Source: a virus. Taken from it: DNA of 64,000 nucleotides. Where the stretch lies: positions 1 through 64,000 of IMG/VR virus record IMGVR_UViG_3300042731_001312; one strand, given 5' to 3'. Positions 1,682 through 64,000 of this stretch are shown one piece after another. The translations under genes were made by a program, and so were the position numbers. The stretch's first letter is position 1; the number at the start of each line of letters is the position of its first letter. The notes below the pieces were generated by a model. That model did not search any database. It had not been told where the DNA came from and worked only from the letters and a program-made list of their open reading frames with translations.

Positions 1682-2257
<576 letters not shown>

Positions 2258-2259
2258 TT

Positions 2260-2610
2260 ATGAAGCATATCAAACCGCTTAACGAATTTAAGGCTACAGA
2301 TATTAAAGCCGTGCATGAGTCTGATAAGACTCCTACTATGCTATTAGCAGATGAAATCGAAGGAGCTGAATACCACATGGCATTTAGTGACGGAGAAAGT
2401 GTTGAGGCTAGATCTACTAAGAAAACATGGGACGATGGTGTACCTGTACTTAAGTATATCGCCAGAGCTCCTAAGAAATACGTAGACTTGCCGAAAGGTA
2501 AATTTGAGGTGGTTATTGACGATAAATACGGATGGTATTACTGGCAACACAAAGGCGTCTGGTATGGTATGGAGACTGACGACGATACAGTACCTCCATT
2601 TGAATATTAA
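2260..2610 (+). CDS. Hypothetical protein, putative internal head protein
   Basis: Likely start ATG 2260 (MKHIKPLNEF), 2 nt after the upstream stop. Confidence 0.7.
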   Translation: MKHIKPLNEFKATDIKAVHESDKTPTMLLADEIEGAEYHMAFSDGESVEARSTKKTWDDGVPVLKYIARAPKKYVDLPKGKFEVVIDDKYGWYYWQHKGVWYGMETDDDTVPPFEY

Positions 2611-2612
2611 CT

Positions 2613-2675
2613 ATGAAAAAAGTAAAACAAATATTTTGGGAATACTGGATTCAACCCTGGAACCCGATACATTAA
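2613..2675 (+). CDS. 20-aa Trp-rich micropeptide MKKVKQIFWEYWIQPWNPIH
   Basis: ATG..TAA ORF that fills the gap between two genes; absent from the ORF track. Confidence 0.55.
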   Translation: MKKVKQIFWEYWIQPWNPIH

Positions 2676-2683
2676 TTAAGACT

Positions 2684-3109
2684 ATGAAACACATTAAACT
2701 ATTTGAACAATTTATTAATGAGGGCATGAAGCCAGGTAAAGATACTGAGCTTGCTAATGCTATCATTAAAGCACTCTATGCAGAAAGAGACACCGAAGAA
2801 GGTGCTGCAATTTCTAGACTTGGAGGTAGAGAATCATTACCCGGAGGTACTGCTGATGAAATGATGTATCTAAGTGGATTTGATAAGGACTCAGTTAAGG
2901 CTGTAGCAAAAGGCAGAGTAAGAGTGCCTTCTAAATTTATGATGGGTGAATTAATCGCAGCAGCTGCCGACAATGGTAATAGTTATTATTTTGACGGTGA
3001 GTTTGTTGAAAACTCTAAAAGCATTCCAGGTACTAAAAAAGGTATGCCATTTAGAGATTTTATCGACACTCTAGTTAAGGCTGGTATTATCGAAGCTCCT
3101 TCGTATTAA
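2684..3109 (+). CDS. Hypothetical protein, putative internal head protein
   Basis: Likely start ATG 2684, MKHIKLFEQFINE, a T4 capsid-targeting-like signal. Confidence 0.75.
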   Translation: MKHIKLFEQFINEGMKPGKDTELANAIIKALYAERDTEEGAAISRLGGRESLPGGTADEMMYLSGFDKDSVKAVAKGRVRVPSKFMMGELIAAAADNGNSYYFDGEFVENSKSIPGTKKGMPFRDFIDTLVKAGIIEAPSY

Positions 3110-46504: not shown

Positions 46505-46876
46505 ATGAGAACATTTAATGAATATTTAGTAGAGCAAAAGATTACTGAGACTGATATGCAACTCTTACAAGAGGGTTTACAGTCTGAGTGGACTCCTGAA
46601 CTAGAAGAAAAGGTAGATCTAGCTCTAGAACAATTTGTAACACAGTACCTAAACGAAGAGACTGGGCAATTTGATTTAGATAGATTAGAAGAAGATATAA
46701 TTGAAGAGGGTCTACTAGGTTCTATTATTGGTGGTCTAACTGGTTTTGCATTAGGCAAATCAATTGGTAAAATGATCGCTAAGGTTCTCGGTATTCAAAA
46801 AGGTATCTTCTACGATTTATTAACCTCCAGATTAGTCGGTGCTGCCCTAGGCGCTGCAATGGGAAAAAGAATCTAA
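46505..46876 (+). CDS. Putative internal head protein with an acidic pro-region and a glycine-zipper membrane segment
   Basis: MRTFNEYLVE; IIEE|GLLGSIIGGLTGFALG...LVGAALGAAMG. Confidence 0.65.
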   Translation: MRTFNEYLVEQKITETDMQLLQEGLQSEWTPELEEKVDLALEQFVTQYLNEETGQFDLDRLEEDIIEEGLLGSIIGGLTGFALGKSIGKMIAKVLGIQKGIFYDLLTSRLVGAALGAAMGKRI

Positions 46877-49492: not shown

Positions 49493-50555
49493 TCCTATAC
49501 AGTTAACAGAGGAGCTTAAGAGTAGAATAAAGAAAGCACTAAAACAAGTTTGTGTAGAACATCATTCTACTCCTAATAAGCAACTACTTAAAGACATGCC
49601 AGGGCGTATAACCCTGGCGTGTCCTTATTGTGGTGATTCTCATACTGATGATACCAAGAAACGTGGTAACATGTATTGGGACACTTTGCAGTATCATTGC
49701 TATAACTGCTCTCACCACACAAACCTGCATAGTTTCTTAAAGGACCATCAGGTTAAAATGCCCAACAATGGTGACTCATTTACTATTATCGACTATATTA
49801 AGGCTAATAAGACACAGGTTACTCAAGACGAAGTCTTACAGAATCAGTCATTAGCTAAAGTACAGGAATTAGGGTTAACAGTCGATGAGTTTAAACAAGT
49901 ATTTGGGGCTAAAGAGATTGAACCTGGGGACTGGATTTGGTTTCAGTTAAAAGACCGATTATTACATAATAAAGCAGATGAGTTTCTGTTTTCCCCCAAA
50001 GGCAATAGACTGTGGATTCTAAACCGTGGGCTTGAAGGTAAAATTATCGGTGCACAATCCAGAAGAATGAAGGGCTATGGGTCTAGATACCTGACCTATG
50101 ACCTACCAAAAATATATGAAGAGTGGAATAAACCGCTCGATCTATCACAAGAGGAATTAAACAAACTTGCAAAAGCCAGCACGCTATTTGGTATTATGCA
50201 AGTTAATTTCCAACAACCAGTAACTCTGTTCGAGGGGCCTATTGACGCTAAGTTTATGCACAACTCTTTAGCGTTAGCTACAGCGGGACGTTCCACAGAA
50301 GAGTTTGATGAAATGGCAACAGTACGTTATATGTTTGATAACGATACTACTGGTAAAAAGAAGATGATGGAAAAATTAAAGAAAGGTAGACCTGTTTTTA
50401 TGTGGTCTAAATTTCTAGAAGATTTTAAGCTAGATACATATAATATCAAGGATTTAAACGACTTGGTAAGAGTATGTTTTGAGCAGAAGTCTCCGGCATG
50501 GAAACAAATTGAAAACTACTTTACATCAAGCGAATTAGACCTATGGTATGTATAA
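49476..50555 (+). CDS. 61: DNA primase, T4 gp61-like
   Basis: CPYCGDS..KKRG...YHCYNC zinc finger; TOPRIM motifs FEGPIDA and FDND. Confidence 0.9.
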   Translation: MTSTSNPIQLTEELKSRIKKALKQVCVEHHSTPNKQLLKDMPGRITLACPYCGDSHTDDTKKRGNMYWDTLQYHCYNCSHHTNLHSFLKDHQVKMPNNGDSFTIIDYIKANKTQVTQDEVLQNQSLAKVQELGLTVDEFKQVFGAKEIEPGDWIWFQLKDRLLHNKADEFLFSPKGNRLWILNRGLEGKIIGAQSRRMKGYGSRYLTYDLPKIYEEWNKPLDLSQEELNKLAKASTLFGIMQVNFQQPVTLFEGPIDAKFMHNSLALATAGRSTEEFDEMATVRYMFDNDTTGKKKMMEKLKKGRPVFMWSKFLEDFKLDTYNIKDLNDLVRVCFEQKSPAWKQIENYFTSSELDLWYV

Positions 50556-50560
50556 AAGAA

Positions 50561-50752
50561 ATGGAAGATAAGTTAGAAGACTTTTTTAAAGACTCTGATA
50601 GATTTAAAGGCAACAAGCTTTTAGTCGGCTTTGATGTAGATGAGTTTAACGTACAGAGTAAAGATTTTGCTGTGGAAAAGCCTAAACTTAAGAAGGGCCA
50701 AAAGGCTGCTAAGTTTATTAAGTCTAATCCAAACAAAAAATCTCTGTTCTAA
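50561..50752 (+). CDS. Hypothetical protein
   Basis: Likely start ATG 50561. Confidence 0.6.
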   Translation: MEDKLEDFFKDSDRFKGNKLLVGFDVDEFNVQSKDFAVEKPKLKKGQKAAKFIKSNPNKKSLF

Positions 50753-51188: not shown

Positions 51189-52697
51189 ATGGAACTAAGT
51201 TTAACAGATAATAAGCAGTTTCTACGTGTTGATGAGGCGAGTGAGTTAGAGATAGAACAGCTTAACATCACTTTTAATCGTAGGATTGAGAACTGGCGAT
51301 TCCACCCTCTTGTGAAAAAGGGTTTATGGGATGGCTATATCTCATATATTAAGGATGATAAATGGATTCCTTCTGGCTTATGGAAAGAGATAATGGACCT
51401 GTGTAAGCAGTATAAGTTTGAGCTTAAGATGAATGGCGTTACCTCGTTGTTCGATCCTAGTGTAAAGCAAGAAGAGTTCACAGAGTGGGCAGAACAGTAT
51501 TTCGACGGCCATGAAATTACACCTAGAGACTATCAGATTGAGGCCGCATATAATATCTTAAGGTTTAGAAGATGTCTAAGTGAATTAGCAACATCAGCAG
51601 GTAAAACCCTGATAACGTATATGGCTCTTGCGTATATGTTAGAGAAGGGTAAAGCAGGCAGAGTATTACTTATTGTCCCAAACGTTTCGCTAGTCGTACA
51701 GGCCTCTGAGGACTTCATGGACTATAACTGGCGTGCAGCTACTAATATTAAAATACAACAGATCTACTCTGGTCAGAAAGTAAGACCCGGTAGAAACGTG
51801 GTAATCGGTACATATCAATCCCTAGTTAAAAAGGATAAAGAATACTTTGAGCAGTTTGACGCTGTAATTATTGATGAGACTCATAAAGCCAAATCCACAT
51901 CAATTAAAACTATTCTACAAAAGTGTACTGCTGCAAACTATCGTTTTGGTTTATCGGGTACAATTCCAAAACCAAAAACATTAGATAGATTAACCTTAAT
52001 GTCTCACACCGGACCTGTGATTACAGAGGTTAATGCAAACTTCTTACAACAAGAAGGCCACATTGCAGGTTGTAATGTGAAAGTAATTAAAATGGATTAT
52101 GCTCCACAAAGTACAAAGAATGCTTTTAGAGAGATGTCCCAAAACAGATATGAAAGTAAAGACGTTTTCAAATTCGAAAGCAATTATGTCATCAATTCAA
52201 CAGGCCGCCTTAGTTTCATTTGCAACATTATTTCCAGAGTACGCGGCAATAGCCTTGTACTTTTCCACAGGATTGAACATGGTAAGAGAATCTATGAGAA
52301 ACTTCGCCAAGATAGCGATAAGCCAATTTACTATGTTGATGGCAACACCGATAAAGACATCCGTGAAGAATATAAGAAGAAAATGGAAGCTGGCGCCCAG
52401 GTTGTTATTGTGGCTTCTTACGGTACATTTTCTACTGGTATTTCTATTAAAAAAATACACAATATCTTCTTTACAGAATCGTTTAAGTCGGAAGTCATAA
52501 TTAGACAATCGATCGGTCGAGGTCTAAGAAAACACCACACCAAATCAGAGGTTAATATTATTGATTTTGTAGATGATTTAAGCTCACCGGACTGGGATAA
52601 TTACCTTATCAGACACGCGAAGGCTAGGCAGAAGATCTACAAGGAGCAGAAGTTCCCTTTTGAGATAAAAAATGTAACTTTTGACGGTGATATATAA
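51189..52697 (+). CDS. uvsW: UvsW-like DNA helicase (SF2)
   Basis: WDGYI, PRDYQ, ATSAGKT, DETH, GLSGT, FSTGISIK.IHN, QSIGRGLR, NYL..H...R..IY..QKF. Confidence 0.93.
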   Translation: MELSLTDNKQFLRVDEASELEIEQLNITFNRRIENWRFHPLVKKGLWDGYISYIKDDKWIPSGLWKEIMDLCKQYKFELKMNGVTSLFDPSVKQEEFTEWAEQYFDGHEITPRDYQIEAAYNILRFRRCLSELATSAGKTLITYMALAYMLEKGKAGRVLLIVPNVSLVVQASEDFMDYNWRAATNIKIQQIYSGQKVRPGRNVVIGTYQSLVKKDKEYFEQFDAVIIDETHKAKSTSIKTILQKCTAANYRFGLSGTIPKPKTLDRLTLMSHTGPVITEVNANFLQQEGHIAGCNVKVIKMDYAPQSTKNAFREMSQNRYESKDVFKFESNYVINSTGRLSFICNIISRVRGNSLVLFHRIEHGKRIYEKLRQDSDKPIYYVDGNTDKDIREEYKKKMEAGAQVVIVASYGTFSTGISIKKIHNIFFTESFKSEVIIRQSIGRGLRKHHTKSEVNIIDFVDDLSSPDWDNYLIRHAKARQKIYKEQKFPFEIKNVTFDGDI

Positions 52698-52733: not shown

Positions 52734-54584
52734 ATGGGTTCATTAAAACTACAATCTTTTGAAGAGTTTGCAAACGCTTCTGCAAAGGCAGCTGCTGTAA
52801 AACTTGAAGAGGAACAAAGCGCTGCAAGAAACGCTGCAGCAGATCAATTTAAATCTCTATTAGCCGAGTTCGGCGCTACATCATTAAAAGATCTTAACGA
52901 AGAGGAAAGAGGCAAGTTTTACGCTAAACTTGGTGCTTCTGAAATCTCTGAGTCTGTAGCAATCATCGAAGAAGGCACGAGATCTCAAGTAGGTAGAATT
53001 ACTAAAAGAGGTAAAATCGAATCAGTGTATATGCACTATGATGGTTATCCAGACCACATGCTACCTACAATTAAAAAAGGATATAAGGACGGAGCTAACG
53101 TTCAACTACTGTTGAAGAAAGGAGGTGGCTCAGGCCTGGAAGCAGATCCAGCAAAGATTAATTTCTATGGAGATAAGCATGTATTGAAAGGTGACGCTAA
53201 AAATATTGATAAGTATCTAAAGGATGCTGACTATGATGGTGGTGCAGAATTCGTTTACCTATATGATGAAAGAGATGGTAAATGGTATATGGCTGACATC
53301 TATGGCGGCGGTGGTTTAACACCAGCATTTGAGTCATTTATTATTAACGAAGCGTTTGTACCTTCTAAGGGTAATTTAAGAGACGCTAAGAAAGTGTCTA
53401 AGTCGTTAGAGCAAATTATGATGGAAGCGGTTGCTTTAACTAGAGATAAAGAGACTCACCTAGGCGCAGTAAAATACTTATTAATGTATGCACTAGAAGA
53501 TGCTAACTTCCACAGCTATATGGAACCCGTAGCTAAGAAGATTGGCGGAAAGATCAGAACTATTATGGTATCGATCGATGAACTAGGTGGTATTGAACTT
53601 CCTATCGGTGCAAAAACAATCCAAAAATTCCTAGACCAAAGATACTCTAATTTATCTAGCGCAGCTGGATGGTCAGGTATCGGTCTTGTTGAGGGTGTTG
53701 CAATGTATCTAGATGGATGGGGCTTCTCAAAAGAGGCTCAAGCAATCGTAGATCAATTTAATCTAATCTGGCAAAATGAGTCAGTAATGAATGAGGGTAA
53801 TGCATTCCTAGCAGCAAGAGCAAAAGCAATCGAGGAAGATGCTGAAGAGTTCGAGTTTAACGGTAAGACTTACCCGGTTATTAAAGAATCTGATGAGGCT
53901 ATCTGTGAAGCAACTGTTGAGATGGATGCATTAGATCCAGATAATAAAGACTTCTTAAAGTTCTTAAAGAAGAACAGGGTTAAAATCATTAATAAAGTTA
54001 TGGACGGTCCAGGCGGAGGTACACCAGTTATTACAATGCAGGGTAAAAGAAAAGACCTTGAAAAAGTATTAGCAGATCCAGAACTTGGTTGGGACGATCC
54101 AGATTTAGCAGAATATATTGAAGAAGGTAACGCTTTCGGTGCTGCAAGAGCTGAGGCTATTGCTAAAGGTGATGACAAATTCAAAGTAGGAGACGAAGAA
54201 TATCCAGTTGAAGACGTTGACGCTGAAGATAAAGAGAACGCTGAAGAGTTTGCAGCAGAAGGTAATGCTTTCGGTGCTGCAAGAGCAGAGGCTATCGCTA
54301 AAGGCGAAAAAGAATTTACAGTAGACGGAGAAACTTACCCGGTTGAAGACGTTGACGCTGAAGATAAAGAGAACGCTGAAGAGTTTGCTAACGAAGAAGC
54401 AGTTACAGAGGCTGAAGTAAAATCAGACGAAGATTTTAAAGAGTATGCATTCTCTGTTTTACAAAAAGCATTCGGTGATAAATTTGATGAAGAAAAAGCA
54501 CAAGAAGTTGTAGACGGTTTATTGTCTAAGCACGGTGAAGATTATGGTGCAGCAGTAGGTGCATTACAATCGTCATTAGGATAA
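52734..54584 (+). CDS. Modular putative internal-head polyprotein
   Basis: LQSFEEF N-terminus; modules separated by IIEE, FIINE, ESVMNE and AVTE; includes a GTRS..YMHYDGYP module and EGNAF repeats. Confidence 0.7.
   Translation: MGSLKLQSFEEFANASAKAAAVKLEEEQSAARNAAADQFKSLLAEFGATSLKDLNEEERGKFYAKLGASEISESVAIIEEGTRSQVGRITKRGKIESVYMHYDGYPDHMLPTIKKGYKDGANVQLLLKKGGGSGLEADPAKINFYGDKHVLKGDAKNIDKYLKDADYDGGAEFVYLYDERDGKWYMADIYGGGGLTPAFESFIINEAFVPSKGNLRDAKKVSKSLEQIMMEAVALTRDKETHLGAVKYLLMYALEDANFHSYMEPVAKKIGGKIRTIMVSIDELGGIELPIGAKTIQKFLDQRYSNLSSAAGWSGIGLVEGVAMYLDGWGFSKEAQAIVDQFNLIWQNESVMNEGNAFLAARAKAIEEDAEEFEFNGKTYPVIKESDEAICEATVEMDALDPDNKDFLKFLKKNRVKIINKVMDGPGGGTPVITMQGKRKDLEKVLADPELGWDDPDLAEYIEEGNAFGAARAEAIAKGDDKFKVGDEEYPVEDVDAEDKENAEEFAAEGNAFGAARAEAIAKGEKEFTVDGETYPVEDVDAEDKENAEEFANEEAVTEAEVKSDEDFKEYAFSVLQKAFGDKFDEEKAQEVVDGLLSKHGEDYGAAVGALQSSLG
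54123..54392 (+). repeat. 135-bp (45-aa) tandem duplication EGNAFGAARAEAIAKG...EEFA, with a degenerate third copy at about 53793
   Basis: Direct repeat visible in DNA and protein. Confidence 0.9.
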
Positions 54585-54602
54585 ACAAAAACCAAACTTC
54601 TT

Positions 54603-55874
54603 ATGAAGATTTATACAAACTTTCAAGAATTCTTAAACGAAAAAGTCCAGGTTAATAACTTGGACAATTTCGTATTTGAAGGTGGCGCCGCGGGCCACAT
54701 GATGCACCCGTTTGATGACCATTCATTAACATTTGGTGATTTTAAAACTATCGTAAGATCTGCTTTACAAGGAGGTCTAGATTTTGAAGAGGCACCAACT
54801 GAAAAGACAGATGGCCAGAATGTATTCGCAACAGTAAAGGACGGTAAGGCTATGTTTGCCAGAAACAAGGGGCAATTAGCTAATCCACTTGACCTAAACG
54901 GTATTATTGAGATGTTTACTGGCCACGCTTCAAAGCTAGTTGAAGAAACATTCATCTTCGCCGCTAAAGATTTAGCAGAAGCACTGCCAAAGATCAAGGA
55001 CCAATCGGTATTCATGGACGGTAGGGCTTTTATCAACATGGAGCTTATTTACTCTAAGAACCCTAATGTAATCTATTACGACAGAGATGTTATTCAATTC
55101 CACGGTATGAAAGTTACCGATGGTAATGGTAATATCATTAGTGAAGAGAATATCGCAGCAGATATTGTAAAAGCACTACAAGACTTAAAGGCCGATGTGC
55201 AAAAGACCTTTACTATAATTCCCCCTCAAATTTTAAAGATAGGAAAAGACATTAACTTTGACGAGAGAGTCGGCTATTACGAAAAGGCGATAAATAAACT
55301 AAGAGATACTTATAGTCTATCGGATCAAGATGAGGTTAAAATGTATCACGAGGCTTGGTGGAGAAACCAAATCGAAGAGAATTTTGCAGATTTAGACCCG
55401 GCATTAAAAGAGGGACTCTTATTAAGATGGGCGTACCTAGACAAGAAGACTCTAAATATGAGAGAGTTAAAGAAGGCAGTTACTCCAGAACAAGCAAAGG
55501 CCGTTAAAGATTTTGATGGTCAAAGAAACAAGAAGTATAAAGAAAACATTCTACCTTTTGAGAACTTATTTTTAGAATTAGGCGCAGATGTTTTAAAGAA
55601 TGTTTCTAATTTTGTTGCTGCTAATCCAGAAGCTGAGAAAGCAAGATTACACAAGCAGATCAGAACTGAAGCTGACAAGGTTAAAAAGAACGGCGATCTA
55701 AAACAGATTGAGAAGGTAGAAAAAGAATTAAAAAGACTAGAAGGTATCGGCGGTATTGAGTCAATCATTCCAACCGAGGGCCTAGTCTTTAAATACAATG
55801 GTAAAACATTCAAGTTAACTGGGACTTTTGCCGCTATTAACCAGTTAATGGGTATTATTAAATACGGTAGATAA
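54603..55874 (+). CDS. RNA ligase-like ATP-dependent nucleotidyltransferase with a capsid-targeting-like N-terminus
   Basis: TEKTDG (motif I), NMELIY (III), QFHG (IIIa), EGLVF (IV), FKL (V); MKIYTNFQEFLNE. Confidence 0.7.
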   Translation: MKIYTNFQEFLNEKVQVNNLDNFVFEGGAAGHMMHPFDDHSLTFGDFKTIVRSALQGGLDFEEAPTEKTDGQNVFATVKDGKAMFARNKGQLANPLDLNGIIEMFTGHASKLVEETFIFAAKDLAEALPKIKDQSVFMDGRAFINMELIYSKNPNVIYYDRDVIQFHGMKVTDGNGNIISEENIAADIVKALQDLKADVQKTFTIIPPQILKIGKDINFDERVGYYEKAINKLRDTYSLSDQDEVKMYHEAWWRNQIEENFADLDPALKEGLLLRWAYLDKKTLNMRELKKAVTPEQAKAVKDFDGQRNKKYKENILPFENLFLELGADVLKNVSNFVAANPEAEKARLHKQIRTEADKVKKNGDLKQIEKVEKELKRLEGIGGIESIIPTEGLVFKYNGKTFKLTGTFAAINQLMGIIKYGR

Positions 55875-55883
55875 TAAACTATT

Positions 55884-57746
55884 ATGGCATTACAGAATTT
55901 AAAAACATATTTCGAAGGCGCTAACATATCAGACGTCGATAATCTTCTTAGCAACAAGTGTATTGTAACCGAGAAGATTGATGCATCTTCTTTTCACGTC
56001 AAAAGAGACGGATCTGATTTTTTATTCTATAAGTCTGGCTCTAAACAAGAAATGGATCTAGTAGATCGCACGATTGTTAGATACTACGAGAATGCTATTA
56101 GATACTTTAGATCTGTATCTGAAGGCGCTGTAAAAGACATGCCATTCGACTGGAAATTTGGTTTTGATTATTTAGTAGATAATAAGACTGTTGATATTGA
56201 GTATGACATACTTCCAAAGTCTAATCTTATTCTAACGCATATCCAAGTTTTGCAACCATCTAATCCTACTAAGATTAGAAAGGTAATTAGAGACACTAAG
56301 GTCCTAAATAAATGGGCAGATAAGTTAGGTGTCGCTGGACCTCCAGTTTTATTTGAGGGTCTATTAGACTCGGGCCAGAAAGATGCAATTAAAGCTCTAT
56401 TGGCGATGTCAGTTAATGAGTTTGAGCAGAAATTTGAAGATAAAGATAAGCCTACATTTACTAGAAACGTCTTTGGTATTTTTAACCAGAACATGAAGCA
56501 ATCAGCTTTAATGAATGACCTGTCTAAGGATGTTGCTGGCTTTATTGTTAACTTCCATGATGGAAAAGAGTTGAAGTCTTTTAAACTAGAGAAGTTTAAT
56601 AAAAAACCGGCTGAAGAGAGAAAACCTTCAGACATGTATCAAATCACAATCTTAGATATTGTAGAGCACTTAACTCAATTTGACTTTGAATCAATACAAC
56701 TAAAAGAAGAGCAATCAGATTTAAGATATTTAGAACTAATGTCAGGTGTTTTTAATGACTATGTCGAAAAGAATGCTACTAAATATATTGGCGCTAAATT
56801 TGATTCTGCTGACTTTTCAGAATCTCCTCTATTTGAATTAAACCACAAGTTTATTCAAAATGAAAAGACCTTAACATTAGTACAAGATAGAATCTTATCA
56901 GAGCTATTTAAAATTACATTAGGTTCTTTTAGAAAGAAGAGAAATAAAGAAACAGATATTATCAATGCCGATCTAATGAATACTATCAACGATATTGTAG
57001 AAAAGATTGAGGGTACGGTGATGGCAAAAACAAACGAAGGCGACGTTATGAATTTCAATCAATATTTATTAAACCAAAAGATTTCGGCACAAGTTAGTCC
57101 AATCACAGAGGGTTTAACTGTTAATTATCCAGAACAGGGTAGTAAGCCAGTTAACATGTTTGTTGGTAGATTCCAACCATTCACGTTAGGTCATGCTAAG
57201 GTGGTTGAAACTATCTACAAGCAAAACGGACATCCAGTAGTTATCTTCTTAATTAAGTCTAAAACTAGAAAGGCAGAAGATGCATTTAAGAGACCTTATG
57301 ATGAAGAAACTCAAATGTCAATGTTAGACAAATTAAAGTCTAAATATCCTATTGAGAAAGTTTATATCTTAGATAGAGCAGCAATTGATCTAATGTTTAA
57401 TACAATGAGAGCTGATGGCTACGAGCCAGTACTTTGGGGAACAGGAACTGATAGACTTAAGACCTATTCATACCAAGTCGATAAGCCAGAATATAGAGAA
57501 GATCTTGGAGTGAGAGATGATTTCGGTTTATTTGAAATACCAAGGACAGGTAAGAATATCTCAGCTACTCAGGTTAGAAACGCAATGTTAGATAACGACG
57601 AGAAGATGTTTAAAAAATTAACACCCAAAGGCATCCATAGTATGTATGGAGAATTAAAAACTAAATTAGAGGATTCAATGGGAGTAGTTGCGGAGTCATC
57701 GCAACCAGAGTTCTTAACCTTCGAAGCCTTTTTGAAGAATATATAA
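55884..57746 (+). CDS. Fusion of a degenerate RNA ligase-like domain and an HxGH-type nucleotidyltransferase (cytidyltransferase/NMNAT-like)
   Basis: TEKIDASSF, PVLFEG, SFKL; GRFQPFTLGH, GTDR, ISATQVR. Confidence 0.8.
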   Translation: MALQNLKTYFEGANISDVDNLLSNKCIVTEKIDASSFHVKRDGSDFLFYKSGSKQEMDLVDRTIVRYYENAIRYFRSVSEGAVKDMPFDWKFGFDYLVDNKTVDIEYDILPKSNLILTHIQVLQPSNPTKIRKVIRDTKVLNKWADKLGVAGPPVLFEGLLDSGQKDAIKALLAMSVNEFEQKFEDKDKPTFTRNVFGIFNQNMKQSALMNDLSKDVAGFIVNFHDGKELKSFKLEKFNKKPAEERKPSDMYQITILDIVEHLTQFDFESIQLKEEQSDLRYLELMSGVFNDYVEKNATKYIGAKFDSADFSESPLFELNHKFIQNEKTLTLVQDRILSELFKITLGSFRKKRNKETDIINADLMNTINDIVEKIEGTVMAKTNEGDVMNFNQYLLNQKISAQVSPITEGLTVNYPEQGSKPVNMFVGRFQPFTLGHAKVVETIYKQNGHPVVIFLIKSKTRKAEDAFKRPYDEETQMSMLDKLKSKYPIEKVYILDRAAIDLMFNTMRADGYEPVLWGTGTDRLKTYSYQVDKPEYREDLGVRDDFGLFEIPRTGKNISATQVRNAMLDNDEKMFKKLTPKGIHSMYGELKTKLEDSMGVVAESSQPEFLTFEAFLKNI

Positions 57747-57765
57747 ACAAACAGATTATATTAAT

Positions 57766-58149
57766 ATGAGAAATATAAAAACATTCGAAGCGTTTAAAAA
57801 CTCAGTAAATGAGTCAATTCAATTCGGTTCTTATTATTATAGTACTAGAACAGCATTCGGTGAGCATAGTGACAACCTACCAGAAAAAGGCAATACAAAG
57901 TATTTAGTATTTGCACATAATGAAGTAGATTTCTATGGCCAAAGAATTAGATTAGAAAACGGCGGTAGCAATAAACAACATATCGGCATTTTTGACGATG
58001 AGGCTAGTGCGGCAGACGCGTACAATACTGCTATGAAAAAACCAGATGGTGTTTATATTTCATTCTCAATGGGAACACTTTACGCAAAGTCTAAGTTCTC
58101 ATTCCAATATGAAGAAACACAGGGTAAACTAGCAAAAATTAAAGCATAA
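57766..58149 (+). CDS. Putative internal head protein
   Basis: MRNIKTFEAFKNSVNE N-terminus. Confidence 0.7.
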   Translation: MRNIKTFEAFKNSVNESIQFGSYYYSTRTAFGEHSDNLPEKGNTKYLVFAHNEVDFYGQRIRLENGGSNKQHIGIFDDEASAADAYNTAMKKPDGVYISFSMGTLYAKSKFSFQYEETQGKLAKIKA

Positions 58150-58151
58150 TC

Positions 58152-60644
58152 ATGGCAACATTTGAAGACTTTTTATCAGAAGGTAAAAAAATACAAATCA
58201 AAAGAAAGTATACAGAGAATCACCCTGCACAAACAGTGGGCAAGACTGCTAATGTAAGAAATGCAGTACTTAAAGCAATTGCTGATGGTATGGTAACAAG
58301 AGAAGAGTTTAACTCTATTATTGCTGAACTTTCTGCTAATTCTAGCCAATGGGCTTCTAGAAATAGAAAATACTTTAATGTTTCTGAAGAGGGCATTAAG
58401 CTTTCAAGATGGGGTCGTAGAATTCTAGCTGAACTAGATGAAACTCCTAAAGCTGCTGAACTTAACGAGAAAGTTAAAGTTACAAAAGATAAATTCCCAT
58501 ACATTGAGTTTAAAGATGGTGGTAAGAAGTATGAAGTAGAATTTGACCAAGGTGATATTATTGACGACCACGGTAACGAGGGTAAAGACTGGTATTATGT
58601 CGGCGTTGACCAATTTGGCGATGAGTGGGAAATTGATGTTTACACTGATTTCAGAGATGAGCCAGAAGATTGGTTTCATGATACTATTAAGAGAGTTGAT
58701 GAGTCAAAAGTTAATGAAGCTAAATTTGTAAAAGAATTTGATAAAGCAGTTCTAGATGCTGAAACAGAACAAGATGTTTTAAAAGTATATCCTACAGCTG
58801 AATTTTATGTAGGTAAAATGTCACACTTCTTTGGAGAACTAGAACCAAACTTATTCTTTAAAGCTTATTATGCAGATTGGTATAAGAAAGATACTGGTAA
58901 ATCAATTAAAGGTGACTTTAAAATTACTACAATCTACTCAGAGAAGGGTAGTAGATACGTAAACTTATATGTAGAAGAATCTGCAGTTACTGAAAACTAT
59001 GAAGTAATCTGGTCTGACGGAATGAGAGGCCTGAAGAAATTCAGAAATGAAAGACAGGCTAGACAATATTTCGACGATAAGATCAAACAAAAGGGTATGA
59101 GAGATGTTGCTTTATATAGAGCAGGCTCTGGTTTTCACTCAACAACACAAACAGAATATGTAATTGCATTTTGGGGTGATGGCACTTACCTGGATAACGT
59201 ATCTAAGAGAGATGCAGATCTAGCAGCTAAAAAAGTAGAAGAATCAGTAGTTAACGAGGCATTCAAATTCGGTACTAAAAATCAGTACTCAATGGATGAT
59301 GTTAATGATGGCTATGGTTTTTGGGGTACTTTAGAAATGCACTACGATGAAAAAGAGGTACAAGACCACTGGTTAGTCGCGTTTATTCACCTAACAGGTA
59401 ACTTAGGCTTCTCTGATGCAGGTGCATTATATTTCCTAAACGCGAAATCAGGTAGATGGTTAGCAGATCAAGTTAACGATAAAGAGGGTATGAACTTTGA
59501 TCTAATAGATGTAATGGATGCATACGCAAAATCATCTCAATGGAAAAAATGGGCAAAAGAATATAACGACTATGCCCAAGAAGAATTAGCAGAAAATAAT
59601 AATACAAATATGAAAACAGAATTCCTATTCGAGTCATTTAGTGATTTCGTTGGCGCTAATTTTCTCAACGAGAAATTAGGTAGCCAGATTATGGCTGATA
59701 TTTTTATGTCTAATAAGCAAGGCAAAGCTGCTGCGCAAAACATTAAAACCTTAGCAAGGGGTTTTTATGGTATGGCTAAAGTAGCCCTAGATAAAATCCA
59801 GGATGAAGATTTTATTGTGAGTAACGATCCAGGTAAAGTATTTAAAAATTACGGCGGACCTAACCACATTTTATTCTTTATTTCAGATAACGAGAAAGAG
59901 AACCCATACTTCCCAGTAGATTCTTATGGTTCATTAAGAACAATCCCGGGCGGTGGTATTCTACTAGCAGCAATGTCTGGTGATAGAATGTTCTTCGCTA
60001 ACGAGTGGTCTAGATGGTCAGGTGGCGGAACTTGGACTAAGCAAAAGAAGGGTGATGAAAGCCAAATTGGTGTTTCTCATAGATATAGAGGCTGGGATGC
60101 AACCGGACTTAACAACGGTAAGAGAATCTCAGAAGTTTCTGATAGAGTAATTGTACTTAACCTAGATTTAGTAAGACAAAAGTATTCTACTGCTCAATTA
60201 AGAGATGCTAGAGCTGCTGCTAAAGCAGGAGCTACCGCGTTCCAATCTGATAAAGACTTCAAGAAGGCTAATATGGCTAGATACCAACAGATTTTAGCCA
60301 ATAAAGCAGCAAGCCTACCTTTAGACAGTATGGTTGAAGGTGCGATCGATATGTTGACTAAGCAGATCCAAGACGGTTTAAAGAAAGGTGAGAAGACTCA
60401 GTATAATGAAATTAAAATTGGAGAATCTCCTAAAGGTAGAGAAGTAAAAGCTAGAGATGCTTCTAGCCACATGTCTTCTATTCTTGATGACTACCAAAGA
60501 TATTGTGACTATGTTAAACAGGCTGAAGAGTCAGAGGCTAGATATGGAGAAAGAGAGTCTTACTATGAAAGAGAGTCTAAAGATTACGCGAAAAGAATTA
60601 AAGATAAGATTAACAAAATAGAAACATTCGATTACGCTTGGTAA
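58152..60644 (+). CDS. Modular putative internal-head polyprotein (about 6 modules)
   Basis: MATFEDFLSE; linkers ELNE, ESKVNE, ESAVTE, ESVVNE and FESF..F....FLNE. Confidence 0.7.
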   Translation: MATFEDFLSEGKKIQIKRKYTENHPAQTVGKTANVRNAVLKAIADGMVTREEFNSIIAELSANSSQWASRNRKYFNVSEEGIKLSRWGRRILAELDETPKAAELNEKVKVTKDKFPYIEFKDGGKKYEVEFDQGDIIDDHGNEGKDWYYVGVDQFGDEWEIDVYTDFRDEPEDWFHDTIKRVDESKVNEAKFVKEFDKAVLDAETEQDVLKVYPTAEFYVGKMSHFFGELEPNLFFKAYYADWYKKDTGKSIKGDFKITTIYSEKGSRYVNLYVEESAVTENYEVIWSDGMRGLKKFRNERQARQYFDDKIKQKGMRDVALYRAGSGFHSTTQTEYVIAFWGDGTYLDNVSKRDADLAAKKVEESVVNEAFKFGTKNQYSMDDVNDGYGFWGTLEMHYDEKEVQDHWLVAFIHLTGNLGFSDAGALYFLNAKSGRWLADQVNDKEGMNFDLIDVMDAYAKSSQWKKWAKEYNDYAQEELAENNNTNMKTEFLFESFSDFVGANFLNEKLGSQIMADIFMSNKQGKAAAQNIKTLARGFYGMAKVALDKIQDEDFIVSNDPGKVFKNYGGPNHILFFISDNEKENPYFPVDSYGSLRTIPGGGILLAAMSGDRMFFANEWSRWSGGGTWTKQKKGDESQIGVSHRYRGWDATGLNNGKRISEVSDRVIVLNLDLVRQKYSTAQLRDARAAAKAGATAFQSDKDFKKANMARYQQILANKAASLPLDSMVEGAIDMLTKQIQDGLKKGEKTQYNEIKIGESPKGREVKARDASSHMSSILDDYQRYCDYVKQAEESEARYGERESYYERESKDYAKRIKDKINKIETFDYAW

Positions 60645-60645
60645 T

Positions 60646-61842
60646 ATGCCTTCTGTAAGTAAGTCACAACAAAGATTAATGGGAATGGCCTATGCTGTTA
60701 AATCCGGCGATATGGAACTCTCAGACATTGACCCAGCTTACAGAGATAAAGTAAAATCATTATCTGACGGAATGACAAAGAAAGACTTAAAGAAATACGC
60801 TGCAACAAAGCATGATGGTCTACCAGAGACGGTGGATGAGGCATTTATTGGACCTTTTGTATTTAATGACAGTATGTCTGATGAAGAATTACTAGGAATG
60901 TACAATGGAGCATTAGATGGCTATGCTAACTATGCTAAAGGAATGTATTACCCTAAATCGGATTACAAGAAAGCTTATCAAGAAATTGAAAAGATTTTAA
61001 AGAAGAGAGGAGTTTCAGTAGACGAAAGTGCACAAGGGGCTGTATCTTTAAATCCAGGCATGACTATCGGTGGTATTGGTGACCCGATGCTTCCAACAGC
61101 AACTGAATTTGGATCGGGCGACGTACCTGCAGTAGCAGATATTGACGACGACGAAGAAGAGGCTAAAAAAGATAATACAAAAACAAAGTTAGAGATGGAA
61201 AATTTACATTTAACTTTCGATAGTTTCTTAAATGAAGCTTCTAATTTTAACGATCCAGTTTTAGTAGCTTTTAGAGCTGCTAGAATGAAGAGGGAAGAAG
61301 AGCTTGCAAAACCAAAGCGCAAGCCCCTTTATGGTAAACAAAGACAAAAAGCTGAAGATGATCTGTGGAATATTAGCCAAGACTTAAAAGATCTATATGC
61401 AGATAGAGGTCAAATGTTAATTGACATGGAACAAGAAGCAGAGGCTGAAGGTGGTCCAATTGCAGACGAATACGGAGGCAAATTAAATGATATTGAAGAT
61501 CAAATTCAAGCGCTAATTGTTAAGAGAAATAAACTTGAAATGAAATTAGCAGAATCAGTAGTTAATGAAAAGAAGCTAGATAGAGAAGACATGATGGCTT
61601 GGATCGAACAACACATGGATTTTGTAAGAACTACTGAAGAATTCAACGGTTCTCCAGGTGGCATCTGGGTTTCAGGTGAGAATGGCGACGAGTATAAAGG
61701 TAGAGTAATCTATGCATACTACTCTGAAGACTACAAGAACAGAACATTTGGTGTAGATAACAGATGGGAAAAGGAACTTAATAAAAGAGGGTGGTATAGT
61801 GAATGGCATGATGCAGGCACATCCATGATTTGGCCACTATAA
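60646..61842 (+). CDS. Modular protein with an N-terminal DUF3008-like domain; putative internal-head polyprotein
   Basis: MPSVSKSQQRLMGMAYAVK.G...M.KKDLKKYAATKH.GLPE; linkers TVDE, SVDE, FDSFLNE and ESVVNE. Confidence 0.7.
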   Translation: MPSVSKSQQRLMGMAYAVKSGDMELSDIDPAYRDKVKSLSDGMTKKDLKKYAATKHDGLPETVDEAFIGPFVFNDSMSDEELLGMYNGALDGYANYAKGMYYPKSDYKKAYQEIEKILKKRGVSVDESAQGAVSLNPGMTIGGIGDPMLPTATEFGSGDVPAVADIDDDEEEAKKDNTKTKLEMENLHLTFDSFLNEASNFNDPVLVAFRAARMKREEELAKPKRKPLYGKQRQKAEDDLWNISQDLKDLYADRGQMLIDMEQEAEAEGGPIADEYGGKLNDIEDQIQALIVKRNKLEMKLAESVVNEKKLDREDMMAWIEQHMDFVRTTEEFNGSPGGIWVSGENGDEYKGRVIYAYYSEDYKNRTFGVDNRWEKELNKRGWYSEWHDAGTSMIWPL

Positions 61843-61867: not shown

Positions 61868-61898
61868 AGCCTGATATTTTTTTATGTCAGGCTTTTTT
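61868..61898 (+). terminator. Intrinsic terminator embedded in the early promoter cassette
   Basis: AGCCTGA...TCAGGCT followed by TTTTT. Confidence 0.75.
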
Positions 61899-61921
61899 AT
61901 TATATTAGTACTGTAATTAAA
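61898..61921 (+). promoter_or_regulatory. Putative early promoter core (copy 3)
   Basis: 24-bp identity with the other two copies. Confidence 0.85.
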
Positions 61922-63152: not shown

Positions 63153-63485
63153 ATGAGCAATATTCTAGAACAAGCAGACAAAATTATTAACCACAGATCA
63201 GAAGAGAAAGAACGTATGTATGGTCCTTTTGAAGAGGGCATGCGTCGTGCAGCAATGATCTGTTCTGGCATGACAGGCAAAGAGTGGACCGGATCCGATA
63301 TGTATGCAGCACTCGTCGCACTTAAATTAAGCAGACATTCTTACAACTATAAAGAAGATAATCTTCTAGATGCGGTCGCATATATTGGCGGCCTAGATAA
63401 TTACATTAAGAAGTATGGCTACGGTGAAACCGAAAAGCCAATTAATTTAACTGATGCCGACGCTGGATATGGAGACAAACAATAA
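63153..63485 (+). CDS. DUF6378-like protein
   Basis: ILEQA..II..R...YG.F......A...S...G........ALKLSR....YKEDN..D..AY. Confidence 0.7.
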   Translation: MSNILEQADKIINHRSEEKERMYGPFEEGMRRAAMICSGMTGKEWTGSDMYAALVALKLSRHSYNYKEDNLLDAVAYIGGLDNYIKKYGYGETEKPINLTDADAGYGDKQ

Positions 63486-64000
63486 CCTGGTCTATTTTAC
63501 GGACTTAGAGAAGGATAATAATATTCGAATAGGTATTTCTGCGTTAGTTGGAAAACTAAGCAGTAAATTAACTTCACATAAATCAGGTTGGGCATTCCAT
63601 TTAGCAAATCAGCTAAAGCATGCCGGCTATCAAAATGTTCAAGTACTTACAGATAACACACCATGGGACGTAACAAGATTCGATGTAATCTTAATCGAGC
63701 ACGGTATGGAATTCAAAGGCAATTTTAATATCTTCGGTGGGGCGAACGATGACTTGTACCATCAAATCACTAGAATGTTCGCTCCCGGTATACGCATGTA
63801 TTCGCTCCACCACGATATGCCTTGTGTAGGTACTCTAATTGAAAAGCGCCTAAAGACAGGTTCAGATCTTTTTAAAACACTTGAAGTACAAATAAAAGAC
63901 GCTAAATCAATTTGTGCTAGAATTCCTAGAGTAGATAGAATCCAAAAGACAGATAAACTTTGCTTTGGAGATTCACATTCATTTAGCCAGTATACTCCGG
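63469..64000 (+). CDS. 3'-truncated hypothetical protein with a GDSH motif
   Basis: Open frame METNNNL...SHKSGWA...EHGMEFKGNFNIFGG...CFGDSHS runs to the window end; absent from the ORF track. Confidence 0.7.
   Translation, partial: METNNNLVYFTDLEKDNNIRIGISALVGKLSSKLTSHKSGWAFHLANQLKHAGYQNVQVLTDNTPWDVTRFDVILIEHGMEFKGNFNIFGGANDDLYHQITRMFAPGIRMYSLHHDMPCVGTLIEKRLKTGSDLFKTLEVQIKDAKSICARIPRVDRIQKTDKLCFGDSHSFSQYTP

Follow-up and report, generated by a model that had tools for sequence, protein, structure and literature searches.

The internal proteins of T4 represent the textbook case of proteins injected together with phage DNA. In this work, we compare with them, and with the other closest described systems, a block of six co-directional open reading frames (ORF1 to ORF6, of 616, 423, 620, 127, 830, and 398 aa, respectively), which fill positions 52734-61842 of a viral DNA stretch of 64,000 nucleotides. 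This stretch (hereafter, the window) corresponds to the first 64 kb of the 101,109-bp IMG/VR viral contig IMGVR_UViG_3300042731_001312, whose CheckV completeness is about 33%; all the features of the block described below lie on the + strand. According to our analysis, the block, which belongs to a huge phage of the T4 superfamily, is probably a late-expressed, tag-addressed, and protease-diced capsid-cargo locus.

The capsid-targeting sequence of T4 is MKTYQEFIAE (PMC8442874); the targeting function of this tag depends on residues 4 and 7 and its processing on residues 8 and 10, with gp21 cutting after L/I-X-E (PMC9026906). The T4 proteins IPI, IPII, IPIII, and Alt have a short N-terminal tag in which two aromatic residues lie three positions apart and are followed by (L/I)-x-E, as is the case in the block. 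Furthermore, all three T4 internal proteins have recently been shown to block type IV restriction (PMC12373910). The T4 core proteins gp22, gp67, and gp68 are likewise cut by gp21 at multiple L/I-X-E sites.

In the giant phages phiKZ, 201phi2-1, and SPN3US, many head proteins are cleaved behind a Glu, in many cases at multiple sites, by a protease related to that of T4, and the cargo is ejected into the host (PMC5694885, PMC10052503, PMC9026906). The motif recognized there is S/A-X-E or A-X-E, whereas position P3 of the junctions described here is V, L, or I; moreover, the cuts mainly remove long N-terminal propeptides instead of separating independent domains, and neither interchangeable cassettes nor stereotyped linkers nor a T4-type 10-residue tag are described in these three papers. 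Polyvalent proteins (Iyer et al. 2017, PMC5512222) share with the block the presence of many unrelated domains in each polypeptide and architectures that are highly variable among orthologues, and, as for the block, they are predicted to be delivered along with the DNA and to act in an early conflict with the host. They differ from it in their MuF, portal, or relaxase contexts, in their recognizable conflict domains and, where they are processed, in their embedded metallopeptidases, whereas the block combines T4-type tag targeting with a predicted separation by the prohead protease at inter-domain linkers. Probing the six proteins with Pfam, PHROGs, and NCBIfam did not retrieve any of the polyvalent signature domains (MuF, ART, metallopeptidase, ParB-like, PBECR, and others). 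What is new in the block with respect to the T4 internal, phiKZ-type, and polyvalent proteins is the concatenation of tagged cassettes joined by a dedicated protease-site linker, of which we found no description in the literature searched.

Head module and capsid-targeting-like tags

The genes of the contig, whose proteome (97 proteins, 32,438 aa) was used for the motif counts, lie nearly all on the + strand. A T4-type head module is located outside the window, at 85.6-93.6 kb of the contig and about 25 kb from the block. It includes a portal of the gp20 type (PF07230, E 1e-72), a capsid protein of the gp23 type (PF07068, E 1e-46), a gp4-like head-completion protein, and a gp2-like protein, with PHROGs matches of the head genes to phrog_207, phrog_213, and phrog_138. 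A 728-aa protein of the module harbors at its N-terminus a gp21-type prohead protease of the S77 family (PF03420 Peptidase_S77, E 1.7e-12), fused to a long, acidic, scaffold-like region; its S80 score is weaker (9.3e-6), which sets it apart from the S80 gp175-type protease of the phiKZ-type phages. A 112-aa gene, the product of which starts with MKIIKTFEEFIQE, sits between the portal and protease genes, that is, it is placed like T4 genes 67 and 68, and the capsid gene is followed by one for a 356-aa protein rich in lysine and glutamate. The capsid protein has its nearest relative in an uncultured 462-kb phage (49% identity), followed by those of the Lak megaphages (about 35%). These affinities, together with the T4-type head module, indicate that the contig is part of a huge marine phage of the T4 superfamily without a cultured close relative. 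As for the T4 internal proteins, an S77 prohead protease, a gp20 portal, and a gp23 capsid protein are thus encoded in the same genome, and the genes in question lie away from the head module.

The proteins of the block carry the motif F-x-x-F-(L/I)-x-E, the spacing of which is identical to that of the experimentally mapped T4 tag (PMC9026906, PMC8442874). It is N-terminal in ORF1, ORF2, ORF4, and ORF5, internal in ORF1, ORF5, and ORF6, and C-terminal, without the Glu, in ORF3. In ORF1 the N-terminal form is LQSFEEF (residues 6-12; 52749..52769), which is kept in the homologues and lacks (L/I)-x-E, the first predicted site of this protein being residue 80. The tag leader of ORF2 (residues 1-13, MKIYTNFQEFLNE; 54603-54641) is kept in relatives, including a Y-x-E-F-I-x-E form; ORF4 (127 aa, 57766..58149) is a single-module tagged protein whose leader (residues 1-16) ends with SVNE, and ORF5 starts with MATFEDFLSE. 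The tag-like motif TFEAFLKNI, at the extreme C-terminus of ORF3 (57717-57743) and without a cut site, is also kept in relatives; the conservation of its last residues (...KNI) is due in part to an overlapping promoter, and the upstream T-F-x-x-F is kept even in one relative that lacks that promoter.

The association of F/Y-x-x-F/Y with protein starts extends beyond the block, since it opens ORF1, ORF2, ORF4, and ORF5 as well as the genes at 46505, 2684, 88340, and 92542 (contig numbering); in the forms FLNE, FLSE, FIQE, FINE, and YLVE, a protease site directly follows the second aromatic residue. Twelve of the 97 contig proteins have F..[FY] within their first 14 residues, against about 4.6 expected, and 83 out of 742 ORFs of related loci have [FY]xx[FY][LIVM]xE within the first 13 (13.6 expected), with forms that include ...SYKEFIVE and MKYVKLYEDFIAE. 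Moreover, two head-module proteins, i.e., the 112-aa one from the gap between portal and protease and the 356-aa one encoded after the capsid gene, start with the same tag.

Linkers, predicted cut sites, and exchange of modules

The first-pass annotation had read the long ORFs as strings of unrelated modules separated by linkers. The motifs that it quoted are all present at the given positions in the ORF translations, their counts, reported below, exceed chance, and the comparison of cassettes and the AlphaFold2 models bear out the modular reading.

ORF1 (52734..54584), subdivided on the basis of module comparison and AlphaFold2, would consist of a tagged helical N-module (residues 1-80), domains 81-206 and 207-354, a variable array (355-559; 53796..54410) of short "GNAF" mini-modules (355-392, 465-509, and 510-559) with an inserted alpha/beta cassette of predicted ferredoxin/KH-like fold (393-464), and a constant C-module (560-616). 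In ORF5 (58152..60644), the leader (1-10) is followed by a predicted winged-helix module (11-106), a beta module (107-189), cassettes 190-281, 282-369, and 370-485, an internal leader of the form M-K-T...FESF...FLNE (487-507, with FESF...FLNE at 493-507; 59610..59672), and a constant C-terminal domain (508-830; 59673..60641) of 323 aa and about 36 kDa, with an isoelectric point (pI) of 9.1. ORF6 (60646..61842) includes a DUF3008 module (5-62), a segment similar to the capsid protein (133-159), an internal leader TFDSFLNE (190-197), a linker ESVVNE (303-308), and two further modules.

The pattern ES.[VIML][NT]E occurs five times in the contig proteome and only in ORF1, ORF5, and ORF6, which represent 5.7% of it, namely as ESVMNE in ORF1 (349-354; 53778..53795), as ESKVNE (184-189; 58701..58718), ESAVTE (276-281; 58977..58994), and ESVVNE (364-369; 59241..59258) in ORF5, and as the ORF6 linker; the shuffled mean is 0.29 and none of the 2000 shuffles reached five. 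Similarly, [LIVM]NE is found 0.49 times per 100 aa in the three polyproteins and 0.42 times in four head proteins, against 0.12 elsewhere (an approximately fourfold difference). Two additional junctions of ORF1 are ESVAIIEE (73-80; 52950..52973), with a predicted cut after E80, which is kept before the 81-206 module in relatives, and the internal targeting-like motif FESFIINE (199-206; 53328..53351), with a predicted cut after E206.

In homologues of ORF5, 77 distinct junction contexts read x-E-S-x-V-(N/T)-E. This logo is partly imposed by the search pattern, which required a hydrophobic P3 (V, L, or I in 77 out of 77 contexts), whereas the coincidence of the junctions with the borders of the cassettes is not. 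An independent set comes from a full HMMER search with ORF5 508-830 against 1.84 billion representatives, which retrieved 185 proteins of 302-1104 aa; in all of them the domain is C-terminal. In the 53 representatives obtained by clustering at no more than 50% mutual identity, and whose region could be located, (L/I/V)-x-E directly precedes the domain start in 53 out of 53 cases (LNE in 26, INE in 10, and VNE in 8). Judging from these alignments, the predicted cut site of the C-domain follows the T4 rule, with a strong preference for Asn at P2. Stand-alone forms of this domain start with a tag (e.g., MKHIKLFEQFINE) and have a second ...LNE just before the domain; the N-terminal leader of one of them (P0250) is collinear with the internal segment 487-507 of ORF5, which indicates that internal tags are fossil N-termini and that the polyproteins arose from in-frame gene fusion.

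The same kind of tripeptide is found in the head proteins, since R-V-N-E closes the protease domain (residues 165-168), the tripeptide recurs near the C-terminus of the scaffold, and the N-terminal region (propeptide) of the capsid protein has a G-I-N-E kept in all the relatives examined. The linker peptides are encoded by differing synonymous codons, which argues for selection on the peptide; a conservation purely at the DNA level was thus rejected.

The movement of modules was checked by BLAST of each putative module against all the ORFs of 86 related loci. The ORF1 cassette 393-464 was found in ORF5-type proteins of three loci (L014, L027, and L040), ORF5 190-281 and 282-369 in ORF1-type proteins of relatives, and ORF5 370-485 in an ORF6-type protein of a relative, while ORF4, which stands alone in this phage, is fused behind a DUF3008 module in L040. 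In every context, fused or stand-alone, (V/I/L/F/T)-(N/T/S)-E directly precedes the start of the module. When ORF5 homologues are aligned, whole modules are present, absent, or replaced, and the break points are the linkers; modules are therefore swapped at the linkers across related genomes, as it had been proposed to check by comparing module order.

The 120 closest ORF5 homologues were then cut at the linker pattern and the pieces clustered by reciprocal coverage, as an earlier single-linkage clustering had lumped everything. About 25 piece families were obtained, in 32 architectures between the constant N-module and the constant C-domain, the cassettes falling into about 20 families with linkers as borders, and 120 ORF1 homologues yielded 33 architectures; phages with 70-98% identity in the constant domains differ in the cassettes that they carry. 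Unrelated bodies behind a common tag and loci that vary among close relatives are also features of the T4 internal proteins. At 90% identity, the ORF5 C-domain family counts 438 clusters and the family of the ORF1 N-part 537, both mostly from marine ENA, Tara, and JGI assemblies.

The AlphaFold2 models are in agreement with this subdivision. The ORF5 model (multiple sequence alignment of 70 sequences) has a mean predicted local distance difference test (pLDDT) score of 62 and a predicted template modeling (pTM) score of 0.31; for ORF1 (64 sequences) the values are 75 and 0.37. Considering the pLDDT troughs (<50) that match predicted sites, a few others being present in both models, those of ORF5 lie at 11-29, 97-106, 183-196, 275-283, 323-384, and 472-507 (predicted sites 10, 106, 189, 281, 369, and 507) and those of ORF1 at 74-80, 201-208, 351-356, 385-388, 505-510, and 539-555 (predicted sites 80, 206, 354, 392, 509, and 559). 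The ORF1 domains between the troughs reach pLDDT values of 80-97 and the ORF5 C-domain values of 75-93. In these models the linkers are in troughs predicted to be disordered, with a beads-on-a-string architecture, and AlphaFold2 predicts no continuous fold across the linkers in either ORF1 or ORF5; the first-pass annotation had named such a fold as a result that would refute its reading.

The expression signals of the block resemble those of structural genes. The T4 late promoter TATAAATA has no sites in the contig, and a different motif class, GATATATA(A/T), has four sites on the - strand and 19 on the + strand, of which 17 are located at a distance of 11-110 nt upstream of a gene start. The genes thus preceded include those for the portal, the 112-aa protein, the protease, the capsid protein, and the 356-aa protein, tail and fibre genes, the 46505 gene, ORF1, and ORF4. 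Within the block, the motif is represented by GATATATAA (52689..52697), 44 nt before ORF1 and overlapping the helicase stop codon, and by GAATATATAA (57737..57746), 27 nt before ORF4 and overlapping the last codons and the stop of ORF3; the first site is kept before 13 of 14 ORF1-like genes in relatives and the second in nine of ten relatives. Since the motif is written into the ends of the upstream genes (...G-D-I-stop in the helicase and ...K-N-I-stop in ORF3), part of those C-terminal residues is constrained by the promoter. An intrinsic-terminator-like hairpin followed by a T-run (61868..61903; 10-bp stem with four GC pairs) closes the block.

Proposed mechanism and alternative explanations

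According to these data, we can depict the following scenario. ORF1-3 and ORF4-6 would be transcribed from the two structural-class promoters, GATATATAA at 52689 and GAATATATAA at 57737, and transcription would stop at the hairpin at 61868. The amphipathic tag, as the counterpart of the T4 capsid-targeting sequence, would dock the proteins onto the assembling scaffold core; after closure of the shell, the S77 gp21-type protease would cut after the Glu of (L/I/V/M)-(N/T/x)-E, so that the tags would be removed and the ES-x-V-(N/T)-E linkers of ORF1, ORF5, and ORF6 severed. The predicted products are about 20 separate folded domains of approximately 4-37 kDa, plus the putative enzymes encoded by ORF2 and ORF3, both of which appear, from their tags, to be addressed to the capsid; they would remain inside the head alongside the DNA and reach the host cell when it is infected. 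The polyproteins most likely originated by in-frame fusion of individually tagged genes of the internal-protein type, followed by gain, loss, and exchange of cassettes at the linkers.

The first-pass annotation had proposed a polyprotein cargo loaded into the capsid, processed, and ejected. The S77 protease, the spacing of the tag, the tags of the head proteins, the (L/I/V)-x-E at module borders, the pLDDT troughs, and the promoter class argue for it; packaging, cleavage, and ejection are steps that we infer, together with docking, retention in the head, and any effector role of the cargo. A more far-reaching version of this proposal, which we advance tentatively, is that of a true polyprotein strategy, in which a single tag would load a whole row of anti-defence or takeover domains, each evolving on its own, the protease would release them in the capsid, and the linker would double as a joint for cassette exchange; the payload, including the ORF2 and ORF3 enzymes, would then be combinatorial, could be rapidly re-assorted, and would be delivered before phage gene expression.

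Several points weigh against a capsid-cargo locus. The block adjoins primase- and helicase-like genes, i.e., it lies among replication genes, and its late timing, like the promoter class itself, is inferred from gene distribution alone. (L/I/V)-x-E is short and common by chance (about 2.3 per 100 aa), so the argument rests on its position and conservation rather than on its occurrence. ORF6 has no N-terminal tag, ORF3 is tagged only at its C-terminus, and the T4 internal proteins offer no precedent for internal or C-terminal tags. Moreover, Pfam, PHROGs, NCBIfam, Foldseek, VIA, and BFVD led to no assignment of module functions, which makes the effector role a conjecture, and megablast/tblastn searches with the block, ORF1, and ORF5 did not match any of 50,697 phage records, so that no cultured relative with a virion proteome can be used. 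Finally, only three of 24 predicted segments have a pI above 8 and most have values of 4-6, unlike the highly basic T4 internal proteins; small size and high basicity characterize the T4 proteins themselves and not the mechanism by which they are targeted.

Other differences from the T4 internal proteins are the concatenation of the bodies into polyproteins of 400-830 aa (elsewhere up to about 1100 aa) with a dedicated ES-x-V-(N/T)-E junction, and the strong preference for Asn/Thr at P2. There is no sequence similarity between the two groups of proteins, and the block is known from sequence alone.

A first alternative, which we consider unlikely, is that the block proteins are packaged and cut but represent assembly material, that is, additional mass for the scaffold or core of a very large prohead, and that their fragments would leave the capsid like those of T4 gp22, gp67, and gp68. 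The GNAF mini-module, of which ORF1 has three copies, is indeed embedded in the protease-scaffold and 356-aa-protein homologues of many related contigs, a link with the scaffold that recalls the T4 core, and it is absent from this phage's own scaffold; it may represent a core-binding unit. In many 130-180-kb relatives (loci L041-L088, e.g., L054:8705-10765), the inserted unit is a stretch of about 45 aa, "GNAF...EDKENAEEF", in the acidic part of the scaffold, and the product of the gene following the capsid gene carries the mini-module at its C-terminus as well. Furthermore, ORF6 133-159 (61042-61122) is 67% identical over 27 aa to residues 49-75 of the capsid protein (contig 91185-91265), the copied segment lying in the N-terminal part of that protein, just downstream of its presumed propeptide; homologues of the ORF6 segment start separate small ORFs in relatives. 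The acidity of many segments, as in scaffold regions, points in the same direction. Within the cargo reading itself, given the acidic products and the module shared with the scaffold of relatives, some of the packaged proteins could serve assembly instead of acting as effectors. As an account of the whole block, assembly material is countered by the compact folds predicted for most modules, which are not those of a coiled-coil scaffold, and by the enzyme-like nature of ORF2 and ORF3. The T4 core proteins are degraded to peptides, whereas most modules here are folded globular domains with a turnover of cassettes; this turnover, in phages with closely similar constant domains, fits an arms-race cargo and not an assembly part, and the stand-alone homologues of the modules are small accessory proteins of T4-like phages.

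We also regard as quite unlikely the possibility that these are ordinary multidomain late proteins which are never cut, ES-x-V-N-E being a flexible connector and recombination joint and F-x-x-F-L a docking helix for another late partner. Cleavage is indeed only predicted, polyvalent phage proteins can be delivered uncut (PMC5512222), and the linkers are short and alike at the DNA level, and could therefore promote the exchange of cassettes. Nevertheless, a spacer would not need a Glu, and the Glu at the last position of the linker is invariant before every unrelated module and kept before the same domain whether this is N-terminal or 800 residues into the protein. The use of differing synonymous codons, the identity of spacing with a T4 tag in which processing depends on positions 8 and 10, and the recurrence of the same tripeptide where the protease domain ends and within the capsid propeptide are also more readily explained by predicted cut sites than by connectors.

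Lastly, the idea that F-x-x-F-L is a docking motif for the sliding clamp or replisome, and the block a set of replication and repair accessory proteins, as its position after primase- and helicase-like genes, the ligase-like K-x-D-G-type motifs of ORF2 and ORF3, and a neighbouring protein ending with LDSFLNDLNL might suggest, is very improbable and was rejected, since the clamp clients of this genome have a different C-terminal tail (x-x-L-F), the tag also starts two head-module proteins, beside the protease, a Glu that a clamp motif would not need is kept three residues beyond the second Phe, and the promoter motif is that of structural genes.

If the capsid-cargo reading is true, the injection of internal proteins would extend beyond T-even coliphages to marine giant phages that are abundant and uncultured, in which it would be widespread, and its mechanism would have been scaled up into protease-diced polyproteins. 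The proteins that uncultured phages inject could then be predicted by a sequence rule, namely the tag plus a Phi-N/T-E junction; small domains that are candidate effectors would become available in large numbers as a catalogue, and natural linkers and tags could be used for loading foreign proteins into capsids.

Predicted domains and tagged genes outside the block

Pfam, PHROGs, and NCBIfam retrieved from the six proteins only DUF3008, a cytidylyltransferase/NMNAT-like domain, and unnamed PHROGs. The VIA wide search retrieved only generic folds, namely a MarR-like winged helix for ORF5 22-105 (Z about 7.7), a small alpha/beta domain of ferredoxin/KH-like fold for ORF1 384-465 (Z 6-7), and a helical bundle. 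Foldseek of the ORF1 and ORF5 models against the PDB gave no match at E <= 0.001, and the ESM Atlas no match for the ORF5 C-domain; in BFVD the matches were limited to small uncharacterised proteins from T4-like and jumbo myophages.

ORF2 (423 aa, 54603..55874) was grouped with DUF6267 in the ESM Atlas and appears enzyme-like; ORF3 (620 aa, 55884..57746) would have in its C-terminal half an NMNAT-like nucleotidyltransferase of the HIGH type. A phmmer search against PDB sequences retrieved nothing for ORF2 and only weak NMNAT matches for ORF3. The K-x-D-G-like motif of ORF2 (E-K-T-D-G-Q-N, residues 67-73; 54801-54821) and the ORF3 sequence E-K-I-D-A-S-S (55971-55991) are similar to motif I of ligases and nucleotidyltransferases.

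The gene order primase, helicase, and ORF1 to ORF6 is kept in related IMG/VR contigs. Five proteins of the contig have x-x-L-F C-termini, encoded at 50543-50752, 63454-64000 (running to contig position 64545), and contig 73383-74591, 78728-79162, and 95876-97147; from its sequence, this is likely a clamp-binding tail, distinct from the capsid tag.

Outside the block, a separate small tagged gene (46505..46876, + strand) codes for a protein of 123 aa, MRTFNEYLVE..., with a late-type motif 11 nt upstream. Its family is kept in many relatives, with starts of the MKTFNEYLVE type, and the gene is assigned to the same targeting system as the block; its product has an acidic middle and a Gly/Ala-rich, hydrophobic C-terminus. 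Three small genes with tag-like N-termini occupy 1682..3109 (+ strand), with starts at 1682, 2260, and probably 2684 (MKHIKLFEQFINE); the first (1682-2257) encodes a tagged protein of 191 aa with an extreme acidic tract, including about 45 consecutive Asp residues. In a related locus (L072:7757-10862), a tandem array harbors at least six small genes, all starting with MKHIKLFE(Q/D/K)F(I/L/V)NE and followed by unrelated bodies, similarly to the internal-protein loci of T-even phages.

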